DNA from: Pseudomonas phage BRkr
Sequence record: LC765218.1
Reading direction: 5' to 3' (one strand)
DNA length: 64,000 bases
Shown here: positions 1,354 through 9,168 of the stretch, piece after piece
Layout of the letters: each line of letters opens with the position of its first letter
Position numbering within the stretch: the stretch's first letter is position 1
Notes under the pieces: generated by a model
What the model saw: the letters and a program-made list of their open reading frames with translations, nothing else
Databases searched by the model: none
What the model was told of the DNA's origin: nothing
Program-made: the position numbers and the translations under genes

Positions 1354-2250
1354 ATGGCTAGTAACCCTATCGATCAGCAGATTATCAACGTAGTACGTAC
1401 GTGCTATGCATCTTATCTGCAAACTACAAAATATCTCGGTCTATCTCCGTTCCGTGTGATTGCACATACAACTCTGAATGAGAAGTTCGGTGTACAAAAT
1501 GGCGTAACTCCAGCAGCGGGTGAAATTCCGAACGTGCGTTATATGGTAATTGGTAACATGGGTCACTACACAATCAAAGCCGCTGATGGCTCCGATGAAG
1601 TAGAAAACCGTATTCACCGTTCTAACCATGCTGCACTTTATAACCATATTCCGTTTGCACTGCGTGAAGTAACTGATGATCTTCCAGCCGCACAACGGGA
1701 TCGGTTCTGCTTACGTGTTCCGGAAAAACATAATGGTAAAAACTACGTTGCCTATTATGGAATGCGCATTAACGTTACAGGTGTACAACCACAGCTTCTG
1801 GAAATCGAAGTAATTAATGGTATTCCAACACCGAAACCGTACACACCAACTGTTGATGATCTTAACCCAGTACCGCCAGCTATTTCGAACAACGGTACAG
1901 TTATCGGTTCTAACGTTAATATCTCGGCCAGTGCTATCGTTAAGGTTAGCCTGTCTGCTGAAGATATCATCGAGATTACCAACGCGCATCGAATTCGTAC
2001 TGCATCGACTCGTTCTCCGATTATCTCTGAGATCGGCTTGTGTTCTGGTGTTGACCGTAAGGTCGATGCACCCGCCGGTACGGGTGGTTCGTTCCAATAT
2101 CTCGAAGTAATCGCTTGTCAAGTTAACGTACATATTGCCACTAACCATCCAATTGGTTATAACTCGAATGGTCTTAACCTAACCTTCGATATTGGTGGTG
2201 TAGAACCTACTCTTGGCGACAAGGCTGTAAACGTAGCTAAGTTCGTATAA
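1354..2250 (+). CDS. hypothetical protein (possible virion structural protein)
   Basis: 298-aa ORF preceded by a GGA-rich RBS (aaggattaaaagaATG). Beta-rich, Gly/Asn/Thr-rich composition typical of structural proteins. No specific motif. Confidence 0.5.
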
Positions 2251-2260
2251 GGACTTAGTT

Positions 2261-2827
2261 ATGTTGCAGATGCCTGAAAGTGATGAACCATTCCGTGTTG
2301 CTTCGTTCGACCCAGGTTCGTCTAACTTGGGTCAAGCGTTGTTGGAACATGGCTTTAAGAATGAAGGTGTGGCGGTGAAAACCGCCTATACCTCTGTTCT
2401 TAGAGATACTCATCCGGACTATTCAATGTTCGGGGAATTGCATGGTAGTCGGGTAGTCCGATTAATGATAATGCGAGATTTGATACTAGACTTCTTAAGG
2501 ACACATAGACCACATGCTGTTATTGTTGAATCTAACTATCTAGGTAGATTTGCCACAAGCTTTGCCGCATTGGTTGAATGTGTTGCCGTTATACGAAGTG
2601 CTCTTTTTGAGTATGACCCTTTTATACCGCTTTACATGGTTGACCCTACAACAGTTAAAACCAACGTGGGTATGAAGAAAATTAAGGGTACAGACAAAGA
2701 AGATGTGCGACGTGCATTGGTAAGTAGAACCGACGTTGTTTGGGGTGATGTTGATCATAGTCAACTAGATGAACACTCCATCGATGCAGTAGCAATCGGT
2801 TACTATTTCCTTACACAGTTGTTCTAG
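2261..2827 (+). CDS. RuvC-like Holliday junction resolvase
   Basis: N-terminal FDPGSSNLGQ matches the RuvC GIDPGSxxTGY motif. AVIVESNY matches the AIEQVF catalytic Glu motif. C-terminal DEHSIDAVAIGYY matches ADAADALAIAITH. Spacing is consistent with the four RuvC acidic residues. Confidence 0.6.
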   Translation: MLQMPESDEPFRVASFDPGSSNLGQALLEHGFKNEGVAVKTAYTSVLRDTHPDYSMFGELHGSRVVRLMIMRDLILDFLRTHRPHAVIVESNYLGRFATSFAALVECVAVIRSALFEYDPFIPLYMVDPTTVKTNVGMKKIKGTDKEDVRRALVSRTDVVWGDVDHSQLDEHSIDAVAIGYYFLTQLF

Positions 2828-2839
2828 ATGTGAGGTAGT

Positions 2840-3334
2840 ATGTTCAACTGGTTAAAAAACATCAAGTGGTTTAATTGGGTGTTTATCGGTATAGTTATTA
2901 CCGGTGGGCTTGGACTGTTGTTCTTCTATAACCAGTATACTGATCAGCTTGTACACAATGGCAGTTTAGTTGAGAAAAATGGTCAACTAGAAGTCAAAGT
3001 CGAAATGCAGGGTAAGTCAGCTGCCATCACTGATGAAACCGTTACTCAGTATACCACTCAAAAAGTCGATGAGCTGAGAGAGCTGGAACAATCACGAGCA
3101 GGAGTGATTGATGAGTACATTAACTTATCCGGACAATCTGGGGTCAGTTGGCCTACTACAGAAAATGTCCCTGTGGAAAAAACTAGGGATGAACCTATTC
3201 GGAAAAATCCCACCACCGCCATTAAAGATAATGGTAGTGTTACTGACGATGTTGCTCTTATCACCCTTGCTAATAGGATGTACGAGCACTACTGCAAAGC
3301 CAAGCGGCTGGACCCGCAGTGCGGTACCAAGTAG
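2840..3334 (+). CDS. type-II membrane protein, candidate i-spanin (Rz-like)
   Basis: N-terminal TM helix (WFNWVFIGIVITGGLGLLFFY), then a charged, likely helical periplasmic domain with two C-terminal Cys. An overlapping +1-frame lipoprotein gene sits at its 3' end. It lies 1.3 kb upstream of the endolysin. Confidence 0.45.
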   Translation: MFNWLKNIKWFNWVFIGIVITGGLGLLFFYNQYTDQLVHNGSLVEKNGQLEVKVEMQGKSAAITDETVTQYTTQKVDELRELEQSRAGVIDEYINLSGQSGVSWPTTENVPVEKTRDEPIRKNPTTAIKDNGSVTDDVALITLANRMYEHYCKAKRLDPQCGTK

Positions 3335-3581
3335 CTTTACTCAACTTTGCTATGTAGCTCCTCCACCGTCAGCTGACGATCTCATCAATGCACCTAGTCG
3401 GTATAAAGTAGCTGGGATCACTGATCCATGGGAAGCTCGTTTCCTATTGATGACAGATCACTGGTTATTACAGACTGACTATCTCGGTTCGTGTAATTTG
3501 CAAATCGAGAAGCTCCGTGACTGGGATAAAAAACAGTCAGAGATGGAGAGAAGCTATGACTCTGGAAAAAATATTAAGTGA
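3231..3581 (+). CDS. lipoprotein, candidate o-spanin (Rz1-like), overlapping the 3' end of the upstream gene in another frame
   Basis: The internal ATG at 3231 of ORF 3108..3581 gives MVVLLTMLLLSPLLIGC, a signal peptide with an L-I-G-C lipobox. The mature part is short and Pro-containing (APPPSADD) with Cys residues. Architecture matches an overlapped spanin pair. Confidence 0.4.
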   Translation: MVVLLTMLLLSPLLIGCTSTTAKPSGWTRSAVPSSFTQLCYVAPPPSADDLINAPSRYKVAGITDPWEARFLLMTDHWLLQTDYLGSCNLQIEKLRDWDKKQSEMERSYDSGKNIK

Positions 3582-3960
3582 CCTTGGCGATAAGCCTTTG
3601 TCGAAAGCTCCTAACTATCGTCAAATCGTAGCATACTTGAACGGTATGTTACATGCAGATGGTAGTGCACGTGTTAATGGGAATACAACTGCCGATGAAG
3701 TATTAACTGAGATCTATTCTCTTTCTGATCTTGAAAAGCAGTCGAAGCTTCTCGAAAAAGAATACACTGGTGTTAGAGCTAGTGATACTTACCGCAGTTC
3801 TATTTTAACTGCAAGTGCCTTGTTAGCTATACTGTCCACTGGTGTAGTGATGAGTGTTATTAACACTGATGGTCCAATGACTTCAGAAGTAGCCGATATC
3901 TTTAAAACTTTAGGTATGGGTCTTATTGAAATCATTAAGATGGTAATTTCTACTCAGTAA
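3556..3960 (+). CDS. small membrane protein with C-terminal TM helix (holin-like candidate)
   Basis: The internal ATG at 3556 is preceded by GGAGAG. Carries a hydrophobic segment ILTASALLAILSTGVVMSVI near the C-terminus. Followed by a strong terminator at 3971. Confidence 0.4.
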   Translation: MTLEKILSDLGDKPLSKAPNYRQIVAYLNGMLHADGSARVNGNTTADEVLTEIYSLSDLEKQSKLLEKEYTGVRASDTYRSSILTASALLAILSTGVVMSVINTDGPMTSEVADIFKTLGMGLIEIIKMVISTQ

Positions 3961-3970
3961 CAATAATATT

Positions 3971-4000
3971 AGCCCCTCCTTAAGTGGAGGGGCTTTTATA
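3971..4000 (+). terminator. rho-independent terminator
   Basis: AGCCCCTCC-ttaagt-GGAGGGGCT followed by TTTTAT. Confidence 0.7.
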
Positions 4001-4050
4001 ATGCTATGTGGGTTAAGTAAATTTTGTAAACCACAATTGAGGGTTTAACA

Positions 4051-4584
4051 ATGAGCGATCGTTTTCCTTATAACCTCCCGTCTCGTGCGGCACTCTGCCG
4101 TTTGATTCGGGAAACGTCTAAACACAAGAATATTCAGGACGAGTTTGTAAACTTCGAAGATATGTTCTTCAGTCCTACTTCTGGTGTTCCGGGGCGTACT
4201 TATATCGAGATGATCGATAACAAAGCTAGTCTAAAAGACTGGTTCGTTTATCGTCGTCTGGAATTGTCTCACCCTGATTGTCTTGGACCTAATCCGTCTA
4301 TTAAACTATCTGGTGTAGCTACACCTGCGGCCATCGCAGAAGAGATCAACCGTTCCCGTAAGATGACATTCGGTCCGGACGATCTATCCTTCTCTACCAC
4401 TGTCATTAATACCAAAGACGACGTATTCGAATATGAACTCGTTGCAATGACTGGTAGTTACGCCTACTTCGGTTCGACTATCGTTACGATCGAAATGGTT
4501 GAAGGTAACCAATATGCACGTCTACTTGAGGATGGTGGTTATCGTCTAATGGAAGACGGCTTGATTCGTGAGCTGGAACATTAA
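4051..4584 (+). CDS. hypothetical protein
   Basis: 177-aa ORF between a terminator and the endolysin. No motif recognised. Confidence 0.5.
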   Translation: MSDRFPYNLPSRAALCRLIRETSKHKNIQDEFVNFEDMFFSPTSGVPGRTYIEMIDNKASLKDWFVYRRLELSHPDCLGPNPSIKLSGVATPAAIAEEINRSRKMTFGPDDLSFSTTVINTKDDVFEYELVAMTGSYAYFGSTIVTIEMVEGNQYARLLEDGGYRLMEDGLIRELEH

Positions 4585-4601
4585 TTACTGGAGACAGACA
4601 A

Positions 4602-5381
4602 ATGGGTACTGTACTCAAACGTGGCGACCGCGGCTCTGCTGTGGAAGATCTACAAATGAAACTTCGAGTCGCAGGATACGCAGTTAGCGCTGACGGAATC
4701 TTCGGTGGAGATACAGAGAAAGCTGTTCGTGATTTCCAAGCTTCTAAAGCTTTGGTGGTTGACGGAAAAGTTGGACCTGCTACTCTAGCTGAACTAGCCA
4801 AATCCGCTACTGTTCCTGCTAAATGGGAAGCTATCCCTTTCCCAACAGCTAATAAATCTCGGTCGGCTGCAATGCCCACACTGAATGCGGTTGGAGCAAT
4901 GACTGGTACCGATCCTCGGTTACTCGCTACATTCGCTTCCATTGAGTCTGCTTTTGATTACACTGTCAAAGCATCCACATCTTCGGCTACTGGTTGGTTC
5001 CAGTTCCTTGATGCTACATGGGATGACATGATCAAAGCACATGGTTCCAAATACGGGCTACCTAAAGATCCCACTAGGGCACTCCGTAAAGACCCACGTG
5101 CAAATGCATTAATGGGTGCAGAATTCCTTAAAGGAAATGCAGCTGTATTACGTCCAGTAATCAATCGCGAACCGAGTGATACAGACTTGTATTTGGCACA
5201 TTTCCTTGGTGCTGGCGGCGCTAAGAAATTCCTATCCGCAGATCAGAAAACTCTCGGTGAAGTTCTATTCCCGAAACCTGCTAAAGCAAACCCGTCGATC
5301 TTTAGCAATAAAGGTGTACCACGTACCCTTGCAGAGATCTACAAGCTGTTCGAAGATAAAGTTTCGAAACATCGGGCATAG
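4602..5381 (+). CDS. endolysin: N-terminal peptidoglycan-binding domain plus C-terminal lytic-transglycosylase-like domain (phiKZ gp144 family)
   Basis: The N-terminus (LKRGDRGSAVEDLQ ... DGIFGGDTEKAVRDFQ) is a PG_binding_1-type repeat. The C-terminal TFASIESAFDY ... [13 protein letters not shown] ... ALRKDPR ... ALMGAEF ... TDLYLAHFLG ... ANPSIF is near-collinear with the phiKZ gp144 sequence as I recall it, catalytic Glu included. Confidence 0.85.
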   Translation: MGTVLKRGDRGSAVEDLQMKLRVAGYAVSADGIFGGDTEKAVRDFQASKALVVDGKVGPATLAELAKSATVPAKWEAIPFPTANKSRSAAMPTLNAVGAMTGTDPRLLATFASIESAFDYTVKASTSSATGWFQFLDATWDDMIKAHGSKYGLPKDPTRALRKDPRANALMGAEFLKGNAAVLRPVINREPSDTDLYLAHFLGAGGAKKFLSADQKTLGEVLFPKPAKANPSIFSNKGVPRTLAEIYKLFEDKVSKHRA

Positions 5382-5512
5382 CGTCCACCTGTTCTTTTAA
5401 CGGTGGTAACACTTAGAAAAGGATTTTGTTAACCTGATACTTCCCCAGGTTTGAAGGTGGTATTATCAGGTTAAAAGAATATGTGCAACGCAGCCAATCC
5501 TGAAGGACATCT

Positions 5513-6532
5513 ATGATGGCTGAAGAAAAGAAAAAGGTTTCTGAACTCGATTTTCTGTCTGGTCTAACCGGACAGGAATTCGTAGAGGTTGTTGCTCGCG
5601 ATACAGAAGGTTCTTATAAGAACTATCGTGTACTCGCAGATAAATTACGTGTAGGCGCTTCTGCTTTTGATGGCGCTGTCAAAGCTGGTTTTGTCGGTAC
5701 TGAAGAAGAATGGTTAGAAACACTCGTTGGAAAATCTGCGTATCAAATCGCAGTTGATCAGGGTTATGAAGGCACTGAAGAACAATGGGTTTCTGCAACC
5801 AATCCTCTATTTGAGATCCTTCCAGAAAATGCTGGTATGGTACTCACTGTAAATGAACTAGGTCTTCCAGAGTGGAAAGTAATTGACCTTTCGTTTGCAA
5901 ACTTAGATAAGGTCGATAATACAGCAGATGCTGATAAACCTATTTCTCGTCAGCAGAAGAAAGAACTTGATCGAAAGCTTTACATCAAAGATGCACCGAG
6001 TGCGGTTATGTCCACTCTACAACAAATCGGTGTAGTTGTTTCTGAAGATGGTAAAGAAGTATCGTTCGATGAAGGGCGTGCCACAGAAGTCAGTGAACTG
6101 CTTCTACAACATCGTCGCGGCTCTGCTCTAGAAGCGGCAGCTTGGACAGGCAAAGAAGGAACGTTCTTTGTAGATCTTGAGAATAAGAAGCTTTATGTTC
6201 ACGATGGCGTTACTGTCGGTGGTGCTCAGATCGGTGGTCTAACTGCCGCTGAAGTACAAGTCATCATCGATGCAGGTATTGCTATCGATAAAGTTACTGG
6301 ACTGGTTGATGCTCTTGCTAAGAAAGCAGATCTCGATGAGGACGGTAAACTGAAAATAGAACAGCTTCCTGAACTGGATATTCCGACTAAGGTTGATGAA
6401 GCTGCTGTCATTGCTGGTGAGGATGATACAGGCTTTGCTACTGCTAAAGGTATTCATGCACTTCTGGACGCCATTGGTTTTACCAAAGACGAGAATGGTT
6501 CTTGGAAACTCGATCCAGCCGTTGTGGCGTAA
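5513..6532 (+). CDS. tail fibre protein (contains two phage tail-fibre repeats)
   Basis: Motifs SAFDGAVKAGFVGTEEEWLETL and GKSAYQIAVDQGYEGTEEQW match the repeats of the downstream fibre genes. Preceded by a structured leader. Confidence 0.6.
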   Translation: MMAEEKKKVSELDFLSGLTGQEFVEVVARDTEGSYKNYRVLADKLRVGASAFDGAVKAGFVGTEEEWLETLVGKSAYQIAVDQGYEGTEEQWVSATNPLFEILPENAGMVLTVNELGLPEWKVIDLSFANLDKVDNTADADKPISRQQKKELDRKLYIKDAPSAVMSTLQQIGVVVSEDGKEVSFDEGRATEVSELLLQHRRGSALEAAAWTGKEGTFFVDLENKKLYVHDGVTVGGAQIGGLTAAEVQVIIDAGIAIDKVTGLVDALAKKADLDEDGKLKIEQLPELDIPTKVDEAAVIAGEDDTGFATAKGIHALLDAIGFTKDENGSWKLDPAVVA

Positions 6533-6610: not shown

Positions 6611-6699
6611 TAAAATAATACACTACTCTATGAGTCTTATTTTCCTTTTAAGACGTGCACGAGTAGTTGCGAAGACTCTCTCCAACAAAGGAATACGTA

Positions 6700-9168
6700 A
6701 TGGCCATTAAATCCAGTCCGGGTATGATCTCCGGAATGCAGCCTCTTAACACCATCACAGGTGAAGAGTTTGTAGAAGTTATCCGTCTTGAGGCAGATGG
6801 TTCTTATAAGAACTTCCGTCTCATGGTTTCTAAAATCCGTAACAATGAAGGCCTATCGGCTTATGAAGTTGCGGTAAAGAATGGTTTCGTAGGCACTGAA
6901 ACTGAGTGGCTCGAAAGTCTAAAAGGTCAAGGTATTTATCAGCTGGCTCTTCAACAGGGCTTCGTAGGTACTGAAGACGAATTCCTCGCCTCTCTTAAAG
7001 GTGAAGACGGCGCAGATGGCGCTGTAGGTAAATCCATCTATGAAGTTGCCGTAGATAACGGCTTCACTGGCACTGAACAAGAATTCCTTGCAACTCTCGT
7101 CGGTAAGTCTGCCTATCAATCCGCTCTTGATACTGGTTTTACCGGTACCGAGGCCGAGTTCATCCAGTCCCTAAAAGGTGACAAAGGCGATGCCGGCGAG
7201 AAAGGTGATAAGGGCGATAAAGGCGACCAGGGTGATCAAGGTAAGTCCGCTTACGATCTAGCTGTCGAAGCTGGTTTCACTGGAACCGAAGCTGAGTACC
7301 TGGAATCTCTCCACGGTATCGACGGTACTAAAGGTGATGACGGTATCGATGGCGCTGACGGCAAATCTGCTTACGAGCTAGCCGTAGCAGCCGGTTTCGT
7401 TGGTACTGAAGAAGAATATCTCGAAAGCCTACACGGTGCTGATGGTAAGTCTGCTTATCAGATCGCTCGTGATAATGGTTTCGTTGGTACTGAAGAACAA
7501 TGGCTGGAAAGCCTAGAAGGCGCTAATGGTAAGTCCGCATACGAATCCGCTGTTGATGGTGGATACGTCGGTACTGAAGAAGAATTTAACCTGTCGCTTG
7601 CCGAACCGAAAGGTGTAAATGGTGGCGTATTCATCACTGATATCACTCCGGTTAATGCCGCTGATAACGTCGGTGAGAAGGTTAAGTCCGCGGATAGTTT
7701 CTCTCTGGTGCAATGTTCTTCGTCTACTCGTGACGTTAAAGTTAAAGTGGCTGCTATTACCGGTCATACTAACTATCGTCCTGTCGTTAAAGTTAACGGC
7801 GTAGATGTATCTCTCGTCGCTGGTGCAAATGCCCCGATGTGGACCGGTGAAGTAACTATTAATCTGCCTGAGCCGGTTGGTAGTGATCCCATTAAGGTCG
7901 AAGCTGTTCACGAAGATGGTGCTAAGGCATCTACTGATGTAATCATGGATACCGCGCCGGTTGTAACTGCGGCTACATTTACAGGTGAATATCCTGGTTC
8001 TCAAACCGAGCTGAAAGCAGGCGACACAATGTCGATCACTTTCACCACTGACCAAGATGTGGTAGGTTATGAGATTCGTGATGAAGGTGCATTCGTAGCA
8101 CGCAATGGTACACTGACCGCCGGTAAGACTCACAGTCTGACTGGTCTGGTTATTGCTGACCGTGGTAACACTGCTACTAACCAACCGTTCAGTATCCGCG
8201 TTAAGAAAGCCTCCGGTAGTTTCTCCGCGTGGTATAAGTCCGACGTAGCTGGTACTACTGAGAAAGTCAACGTTGTCAAGCTGAACAACCTGAAACCGAC
8301 GATTACATTCGGTGCTGTAACTTATCCGGCTGGTCAAACTGCCATTAAAGCTGGTGAAGATGCAACCGTTGCTAACACTGTAACTAACGCTACTAGCGCT
8401 ACTTACACCTCGGCTAATGGTCAGCTGACTGTAACTAACCCGACTCAGATTGAAGCAAACAAAACTGTTTCTTACCTGACTGGTAATTACAACGACCTGA
8501 CTAATAACCTGACAATCACTGCACAACGTGCTGCTAACGGTAGTTCGTCTACTGCATCGACAATCGTTAAGATTGCTAACGGTGCCCCTGAACTGACTGT
8601 TACCACTCCTGCCACTCGTCTGCGCTCCGGTGGTAATGCAGGTACTGTTGTACAGCGTCACACCATCACTATCACTTCGACTCAATCGCTGGCTGAAGCC
8701 CCTGTGATGACTGCTCCTGGCGGTAACTGGGATTCTGCTGGTTGGGTGGGTGATGCAGCTAAGAAAGTATGGACACGCACACTGCTCGTTCATGATGATG
8801 ATGCTAAAGGTATCTTCAACTTTACCGATGTTGTAGCCAAAGGTCTGGCTGGCGTTACAGTCAATACCCTTAAAGCTGGTGGCGAGTATACCCTTGGTGG
8901 CTTCGTTCTTCGTACCATGTCTATCGCTGCTTTCCCGAATCGTGAAGGTGCTATTGGTACAGATGTAGTTATGACTGGTAAACTTCGCTGCACTAACCTG
9001 TCTAAGGGTGCTAGCGGTTCTCTTAACTTCACCTATAAAGCTGACGATGCTGATGCTGTAAATACTTACACCATCAAGAATAGCAATAGTTGGTATAACT
9101 GCGACGCAGCTAACGCTGTATCTAACACATCCGGTCTGATGCGCGTCGAACTTGAGGAAGTTGTATAA
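6700..9168 (+). CDS. tail fibre protein with ~10 tandem lambda-Stf-type fibre repeats and a short collagen-like segment
   Basis: Start moved to ATG 6700 (AAAGGAA RBS). Contains a repeated ~25-aa unit GKSAY[EQ][IL]A[VR].NGF.GTE.E[WF]L.SL.G plus GDKGDAGEKGDKGDKGDQGDQG. The C-terminal 500 aa is Thr/Val/Ala-rich and beta-rich (Ig-like or receptor-binding). Confidence 0.7.
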   Translation: MAIKSSPGMISGMQPLNTITGEEFVEVIRLEADGSYKNFRLMVSKIRNNEGLSAYEVAVKNGFVGTETEWLESLKGQGIYQLALQQGFVGTEDEFLASLKGEDGADGAVGKSIYEVAVDNGFTGTEQEFLATLVGKSAYQSALDTGFTGTEAEFIQSLKGDKGDAGEKGDKGDKGDQGDQGKSAYDLAVEAGFTGTEAEYLESLHGIDGTKGDDGIDGADGKSAYELAVAAGFVGTEEEYLESLHGADGKSAYQIARDNGFVGTEEQWLESLEGANGKSAYESAVDGGYVGTEEEFNLSLAEPKGVNGGVFITDITPVNAADNVGEKVKSADSFSLVQCSSSTRDVKVKVAAITGHTNYRPVVKVNGVDVSLVAGANAPMWTGEVTINLPEPVGSDPIKVEAVHEDGAKASTDVIMDTAPVVTAATFTGEYPGSQTELKAGDTMSITFTTDQDVVGYEIRDEGAFVARNGTLTAGKTHSLTGLVIADRGNTATNQPFSIRVKKASGSFSAWYKSDVAGTTEKVNVVKLNNLKPTITFGAVTYPAGQTAIKAGEDATVANTVTNATSATYTSANGQLTVTNPTQIEANKTVSYLTGNYNDLTNNLTITAQRAANGSSSTASTIVKIANGAPELTVTTPATRLRSGGNAGTVVQRHTITITSTQSLAEAPVMTAPGGNWDSAGWVGDAAKKVWTRTLLVHDDDAKGIFNFTDVVAKGLAGVTVNTLKAGGEYTLGGFVLRTMSIAAFPNREGAIGTDVVMTGKLRCTNLSKGASGSLNFTYKADDADAVNTYTIKNSNSWYNCDAANAVSNTSGLMRVELEEVV
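6850..7615 (+). repeat. tandem array of ~10 coding repeats (~75-90 nt each) encoding lambda-Stf-type tail-fibre repeats
   Basis: Repeated protein unit GKSAY.[IL]A[VR].NGF.GTE.E[WF]L.SL.G, read directly. Related copies at 5655..5800 and 9350..9440. Confidence 0.7.

Follow-up and report, generated by a model that had tools for sequence, protein, structure and literature searches.

A probable phiKZ-type lysis cassette in Pseudomonas phage BRkr and the likely start of its overlapped o-spanin gene

Introduction

The closest described counterpart of the locus reported here is the lysis cassette of phage phiKZ, gp141/gp141.1/gp142/gp143/gp144, all five members of which were tested by Manohar, Wan, Ganser, Sharp & Young (Sci Rep 2026, PMC12894885). 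Our subject is the interval 2840-5381 of a 64,000-nucleotide (nt) window of Pseudomonas phage BRkr (sequence record LC765218.1; the window is the whole stretch analysed, and coordinates count from its first letter). We read this interval, with a probability of about 0.9, as the lysis cassette of a PS119XW/PA1C-type, phiKZ-like jumbo phage; its five genes encode, in order, an inner-membrane spanin (i-spanin), an outer-membrane spanin (o-spanin), a holin, a holin-timing regulator and an endolysin.

In phiKZ, the overlapping genes 141 and 141.1 together complement a lambda RzamRz1am prophage, and gp141.1 is seen to be a lipoprotein, with the lipobox LNGC, when its start is moved upstream of the annotated one (PMC12894885). 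The gp142 protein complements lambda Sam, is triggered prematurely by dinitrophenol and was named a class IIIb holin, whereas the cytoplasmic gp143 shifts holin timing via the holin N-terminal domain (PMC12894885). The same paper cites a report in which gp143 is the only non-essential cassette gene. Together, the five cloned genes lyse both Escherichia coli and P. aeruginosa PAO1, and HPP-Temi, a phage of the same genus as the one studied here, was included in the heterodimer structural modelling (PMC12894885).

The original prediction made on this DNA had proposed an overlapped i-spanin/o-spanin pair and a membrane protein upstream of an endolysin. Our analysis bears this out: the arrangement is the one demonstrated by experiment in phiKZ, and the genes are syntenic orthologues of those found there. 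Its remark that the holins and spanins of phiKZ-like phages are poorly defined has been untrue since late 2025 (PMC12894885).

Results and Discussion

Orthology with the phiKZ cassette

The five products of the window were compared with phiKZ proteins by pairwise BLASTP. Identity is 33% between the i-spanin and gp141 (E 7e-20), 56% between the o-spanin and gp141.1 (E 3e-40), 35% between the holin and gp142 (E 5e-27), 50% over 177 amino acids (aa) between the regulator and gp143 (E 2e-57), and 57% between the endolysin and gp144 (E 1e-102). The same five genes thus stand in the same order in both phages, directly after a RuvC-like gene, at 33-57% identity, and the hydrophobic segments of their products fall at corresponding positions. 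When either spanin product was used as a tblastn query, about 66-68 Pseudomonas jumbo-phage records were retrieved, phiKZ among them; there the matches correspond to PHIKZ141 and PHIKZ141.1, followed by PHIKZ142, 143 and 144. The five-gene order right behind the RuvC-like resolvase gene is also found in PhiPA3, Psa21, D6, Noxifer and RVTF4. The cassette is of a kind already known, being an orthologue of the published phiKZ system. Since the phiKZ orthologues have been tested experimentally, the original interpretation is supported, and the system counts as already characterised in an orthologous phage. Sequence establishes the identities of the genes; the start codon of the o-spanin we infer.

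A megablast search of the phage collection with positions 2200-5500 gave 99.6% identity across the full query for the Pseudomonas phages PS119XW and PA1C, and 87.5% nt identity for HPP-Temi. The records of PS119XW and HPP-Temi assign them to the genus Pawinskivirus, 300-kb phiKZ-like jumbo phages of P. aeruginosa. The window belongs to Pawinskivirus and not to Phikzvirus. It also differs from phiKZ in that functions were demonstrated in phiKZ, whereas the window phage is known here from its sequence.

The resolvase gene upstream (2261-2827, plus strand) encodes a RuvC-like Holliday junction resolvase (phrog_159, 2e-32), and the i-spanin gene starts 12 nt downstream of it. As this gene order is constant in all inspected relatives, the lysis cassette may be co-transcribed with the RuvC-like gene.

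The spanin pair

The i-spanin gene (2840-3334, plus strand) encodes 164 aa and was assigned as the gp141 orthologue from its open reading frame (ORF), hydropathy, PHROG and BLASTP matches. Transmembrane calls were made on Kyte-Doolittle hydropathy with a 19-residue window. A lone hydrophobic segment covers residues 10-32 (nt 2867-2935; maximum 1.99), with no other segment in the protein. It is preceded by two Lys, which predicts an N-in topology with the remainder in the periplasm. The domain that follows is charged (16 K+R, 21 D+E), so that the N-terminal transmembrane protein with a charged domain proposed for this ORF is recovered. The protein matches phrog_7584 ('Rz-like spanin', 3.4e-35), the label that the RefSeq record of PS119XW (NC_070882) also gives to this gene; no Pfam match was found. 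Cys152 and Cys161, both in the periplasmic domain, are invariant in the alignment of relatives. An AlphaFold2 model built on a 5-sequence alignment shows helices at 3-58, 65-96 and 136-154, together with an unstructured stretch at 97-135. Its mean predicted local distance difference test score (pLDDT) of 54 denotes low confidence; the secondary structure was used with caution, and the score is too low for a fold search. In the other frame, the DNA of this modelled unstructured stretch encodes the o-spanin signal sequence. This is suggestive only, but matches the finding that spanin overlaps generally sit in low-constraint parts of i-spanins (PMC6139136).

The o-spanin gene, for which we prefer the extent 3111-3581 (plus strand; a 156-aa prolipoprotein), is the orthologue of gp141.1 on the evidence of conservation, BLASTP and PHROG. 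It is read in the +2 frame relative to the i-spanin, runs over the modelled unstructured linker and C-terminal helix of the i-spanin, and ends at 3581. From the start at 3111, a 56-aa signal sequence is read, which has a basic N-extension and, at residues ~40-53, its hydrophobic core. The lipobox LIGC occupies nt 3270-3281, and the codon of the lipidated Cys (Cys57) nt 3279-3281. Whichever start is used, the mature form is identical: 100 aa with the N-terminus CTSTT and 7 Pro. The original prediction had placed a lipobox-bearing product in another frame overlapping the 3' end of the i-spanin gene, and this stands: from ATG 3231 the +2 frame reads MVVLLTMLLLSPLLIGC, overlaps the first ORF by 104 nt, contains LIGC and gives a product of 116 aa. 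The mature lipoprotein had been described as short and Pro-containing; the prolines are there, but at 100 aa it is not short.

Lipoproteins are retained in the inner membrane during Lol sorting when Asp occupies position +2, or Lys-Ser positions +3/+4, after the lipidated Cys. The mature o-spanin carries neither signal, as expected for a protein sorted to the outer membrane.

The lipoprotein signal VVLLTMLLLSPLLIGC fits the pattern [LVI][ASTVI][GAS]C. In a six-frame scan for an uncharged hydrophobic stretch followed by a lipobox and 40 open codons, it was the sole such site in the 64 kb, with 0.09-0.25 expected in Markov-1 random sequence. Related loci were drawn from 8 GenBank phages (including the window's own type), from 18 IMG/VR loci recovered using the o-spanin alignment, and from 4 metagenome contigs with i-spanins sharing 82, 68, 60 and 55% identity with that of the window. 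The entry to these contigs was a protein homologue search that itself gave few matches (2 for the o-spanin, 5 for the i-spanin). All of the related loci examined have the +2 frame, its hydrophobic core and its lipobox Cys, and with them the overlapped arrangement that was to be looked for in related genomes. A chance ORF is ruled out by this conservation together with the six-frame scan.

The lipoboxes read LIGC, LTGC, LNGC, LHGC and LSGC in the 8 GenBank phages, and LTGC, LSAC, LTAC, LAAC, LNAC and LAGC in the 18 IMG/VR loci; phiKZ has LNGC where the window has LIGC. An alignment of eight o-spanins contains 23 invariant positions, including Cys57, Cys80 and Cys128, although the relatives are only ~30-45% identical. 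All eight match the Pfam family PF23793 (Rz1-like protein LysC) at E<=0.01, the best at 8.3e-10. The PHROG matches are to phrog_456 ('Rz-like spanin', 1e-7, at the N-terminus) and to phrog_24791 (3e-28). Intermolecular disulfides have a role in spanins (Kongari et al., PMC6139136), and the invariant periplasmic Cys pairs in both spanins fit such a role.

Among described spanin pairs outside the phiKZ group, the arrangement resembles LysB/LysC of P2, where the o-spanin likewise begins inside the i-spanin gene and runs past its end. In all 8 of the relatives tested, the LysC profile aligns with the C-terminal part of the o-spanin. However, the window o-spanin falls under the Pfam threshold, its mature form is larger (100 aa), the i-spanin is without a Pfam match and the overlap is longer (224 or 104 nt, depending on the start). 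With lambda Rz/Rz1, the pair shares an inner-membrane type II protein, an outer-membrane lipoprotein and periplasmic cysteines in both subunits, and the phiKZ orthologues functionally replace Rz/Rz1. In contrast, Rz1 is wholly embedded in Rz, and mature Rz1 is just 40 aa and Pro-rich. The searches run turned up no sequence similarity to Rz/Rz1; no direct pairwise comparison was made. Compared with phiKZ itself, the spanin pair overlaps in the +2 frame in both phages, and the overlap between holin and o-spanin genes is 26 nt in both.

Holin, regulator and endolysin

The holin gene (3556-3960, plus strand) encodes 134 aa; BLASTP and hydropathy indicate an orthologue of the class III(b) holin gp142. 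Its start overlaps the 3' end of the o-spanin gene by 26 nt. The protein has exactly one hydrophobic segment, at residues 81-104 (nt 3796-3867), behind a large N-terminal soluble domain, in agreement with the single C-terminal transmembrane segment proposed for it. The gp142 segment is at the same place (81-103). The flanks of the segment show a weak charge bias, with 3 K+R in the 15 residues before it and 1 in the 15 after, and 3 D+E on each side. GTG 3517 was considered as an alternative start and rejected: its Shine-Dalgarno (SD) energy is -3.0 kcal/mol versus -6.4 for ATG 3556, and the N-terminus MTLE of phiKZ is conserved. The product matches phrog_14484 (1.8e-41), a family labelled 'virion structural protein'. 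Like T4 holin T, which acts with the antiholins RI/RIII (class III), it would have one N-in transmembrane segment and a soluble partner that modulates timing. However, the large domain is periplasmic in T4 and predicted to be cytoplasmic here (class IIIb, Manohar et al.), and the two proteins have no sequence similarity.

Downstream of the holin gene, a strong GC-rich hairpin of 9 bp (7 G-C) at 3971-3994 carries a T-run on the plus strand and an A-run before it, and is terminator-like. It lies between the genes of the holin and the regulator, where it could divide the cassette into two transcription units or work bidirectionally. A sigma-70 promoter scan found 3 sites against 6.4 expected and was uninformative. 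Phages of the phiKZ type use their own RNA polymerases, so the sigma-70 scan does not apply to them.

The regulator gene (4051-4584, plus strand) encodes a 177-aa product without any hydrophobic segment that matches phrog_2935 (7e-43). It lies between the holin and endolysin genes, as does gp143, from which its putative function in holin timing is carried over. In the metagenome locus L028 (Logan contig SRR24994200_43457, with the i-spanin 82% identical to ours), a +1 frameshift near codon 108 interrupts the gp143-type gene at 1896-2445. Either the assembly is wrong here or the gene is a genuine pseudogene, and the latter would fit the reported non-essentiality of gp143.

The endolysin gene (4602-5381, plus strand) encodes 259 aa and is identified by Pfam and BLASTP as the gp144 orthologue. 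It combines an N-terminal PG_binding_1 domain (PF01471, 2e-16) with a lytic transglycosylase SLT domain (PF01464, 5.6e-6) and has no hydrophobic segment. An endolysin about 640 nt past the 134-aa gene had been predicted, and the gene does begin 641 nt after 3960; the interval, however, holds the 177-aa cassette gene at 4051-4584.

Two ORFs lie 3' of the endolysin gene, at 5513-6532 and 6667-9168 (plus strand). Both contain many copies of a ~27-aa motif, KSAY..A...GF.GTE.E[WF]L.SL.G, and the second also has a brief collagen-like GD/GE run. Their equivalents in relatives bear inconsistent labels (tail protein, tail sheath, hydrolase and others).

Proposed course of lysis

By orthology with the tested phiKZ genes, from which every step below is taken, lysis may proceed as follows. 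The holin (3556-3960) would build up in the inner membrane, its large N-terminal domain facing the cytoplasm, until holes form suddenly. The cytoplasmic product of 4051-4584 would bind the N-terminal domain of the holin and thereby shift the timing. The soluble transglycosylase (4602-5381) would then cross the holes and break down the peptidoglycan. Finally, the i-spanin/o-spanin complexes, freed by the loss of peptidoglycan, would fuse or disrupt the outer membrane. Sec would export the o-spanin, which would be lipidated at Cys57, processed by signal peptidase II and directed to the outer membrane, with Thr at +2.

Annotation state and alternative readings

The o-spanin gene is absent from the records of PS119XW (RefSeq), PA1C and PhiPA3, and is present in that of HPP-Temi only as a 43-aa C-terminal fragment. 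Among the 5.8 billion proteins of one database, only two clusters correspond to this particular o-spanin. The first is a 110-aa call from phage BRkr beginning at Met47; the second is a 156-aa call on a 930-bp contig, where the upstream ATG was used and a precomputed LysC hit is listed. In GenBank, PHIKZ141.1 (AF399011 144953-145240; 2519-2806 in our phiKZ locus, L004) starts at a GTG five codons past the lipobox Cys. Since this coding sequence starts after the Cys, the deposited protein is without its entire signal sequence.

In the PA1C record, the i-spanin, the holin and the regulator are all labelled 'virion structural protein'. These labels were apparently passed between records, to judge from the notes in PA1C and PhiPA3, which refer to similarity with PhiPA3, phiKZ and 201phi2-1. 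Taken at face value, they would make the ORFs 2840-3334, 3556-3960 and 4051-4584 virion structural proteins and the overlapped lipoprotein frame an unexpressed one. GenBank records (PA1C, PhiPA3) and the families phrog_14484 and phrog_2935 carry the label, and the o-spanin frame is unannotated in most records. However, these are transferred annotations and not tests, and they conflict with the lysis functions demonstrated for the phiKZ orthologues. The overlapped frame keeps its lipobox Cys, two more Cys and the 23 invariant residues at ~30-45% identity, and it matches Pfam LysC; overlapped o-spanin genes are known to escape gene callers (PMC6139136). We therefore regard a virion role as very improbable. 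Several points do count against the lysis cassette, and the virion labels in several GenBank records are among them. The gene functions are all carried over from phiKZ orthologues at 33-57% identity, and the transmembrane segments and the lipoprotein signal were called from hydropathy and a regular expression. The o-spanin of the window itself scores 20-21.6 bits against PF23793, below the gathering cut-off of 27, and the helical or coiled-coil character of the i-spanin is only suggested by a model with a pLDDT of 54.

Within the lysis cassette, a second alternative concerns where translation of the o-spanin begins. The original prediction had used ATG 3231, which would give a 116-aa precursor with a 16-residue signal peptide; the open frame upstream and the SD-like motif in it would then be by-products of i-spanin sequence conservation. 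This ATG is present immediately before the hydrophobic core, and canonical lipoprotein signal peptides have ~15-25 residues. In phiKZ, a canonical signal peptide, MKLTQKKITLISLLMLLLNGC, begins at the proximal ATG, which the authors chose as the start of gp141.1 (120 codons; PMC12894885). The motif GVIDEY, which contains the SD and ATG 3111, is conserved in the i-spanin frame as protein, so that conservation of the upstream start is confounded. Moreover, a 56-residue lipoprotein signal sequence is unusually long. All of this weighs against ATG 3111. However, the SD energy of ATG 3231 is -1.1 kcal/mol, when the median of 807 out-of-frame internal ATGs is -3.0, so that it has no Shine-Dalgarno sequence to speak of, and it provides no basic N-region. 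In HPP-Temi, at 87.5% nt identity, and in the loci L028, L029, L030 and L031, non-start codons stand in its place. L030 has no proximal ATG, GTG or TTG leaving more than 9 residues before the Cys; the upstream ATG is the only one that does so. Thus the window, unlike phiKZ, is without a proximal ATG bearing a canonical charged N-region, and the upstream conserved ATG is the likely start. ATG 3231 is probably wrong, though it keeps a real minority share of our expectation.

Our preference for ATG 3111 as the main start is modest, somewhat better than even. It is served by the SD-like sequence AGGAGTGAT (3100-3108, plus strand), which ends 2 nt before the ATG (6 nt in the case of its AGGAG core), falls within the i-spanin codons for GVIDEY and is conserved in relatives. 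The duplex with the 16S 3' end has an energy of -9.5 kcal/mol, in the top 0.7% of the 807 internal ATGs. It is stronger than at 48 of the 49 long-ORF starts in the window and is the strongest SD in the region. The o-frame opens at TGA-TTG-ATG, and from ATG 3111 the overlap with the i-spanin gene becomes 224 nt instead of 104 nt. An ATG homologous to 3111, reading MSTL or MTTL, occurs in nearly all lineages and is the sole start so widely conserved. The exceptions are a GTG in one IMG/VR locus and Noxifer, which uses a different ATG with the SD GAAGGAGAAGG. In the 201phi2-1 group the upstream ATG yields a signal sequence of 33-35 residues with a strongly basic N-region. ATG 3165 and ATG 3189 were rejected as starts: their SDs are weak and each is missing from several of the closest relatives (3189 from 5 of 5).

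The N-extension was also examined as coding sequence. It is net basic in all lineages and stop-free in 12 of 12. Synonymous codons of the i-spanin were resampled, and the +2 frame was scored upstream of a canonical 20-residue signal peptide. The extension stayed stop-free with a per-lineage P of 0.06-0.82, for a summed log10 of -6.6 over the 12 lineages, which are related and not fully independent. Among the six closest relatives, aa identity in this segment is 0.54 in the o-frame versus 0.48 in the i-frame, whereas in single-coding segments the coding frame wins clearly (0.73 vs 0.59 and 0.83 vs 0.57). A WK[KR]LG motif in this segment is visible only in the o-frame. A literature search on ribosome profiling of phiKZ found no data that map initiation sites.

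Extended to phiKZ-like phages, the same reading would have their o-spanins made not from a start beside the hydrophobic core but from a strong, conserved SD-ATG ('MSTL...') buried in the most conserved motif of the i-spanin, (V/L)I(D/N)EY, and we lean slightly towards it.

A separate observation concerns the deposited phiKZ genome. The upstream ATG there (AF399011 144776) has a perfect 8-nt SD, GAGGTGAT, with an energy of -11.9 kcal/mol; the value for the proximal ATG of the 2026 paper is -2.7.

Implications

The question of the start codon is a small, testable point on the translation of overlapped spanins, and it leaves the mature protein and the mechanism unchanged. If upstream initiation is true, these o-spanins would have unusually long basic signal sequences. 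For the 201phi2-1 group this would mean 33-35 residues, and for phiKZ, PhiPA3, Psa21 and this phage 54-58. The start assignment of phiKZ gp141.1 would be revised, and the unstructured linker of the i-spanin would be dual-coding throughout. The long cytoplasmic N-extension could in that case serve a separate function, for example in the timing or coupling of spanin synthesis. The main value of the analysis is a correction of annotation, as the o-spanin is missing or cut back in the inspected public records of this phage group. Correct lysis-gene calls help phage-therapy and endolysin work on the jumbo phages of P. aeruginosa.

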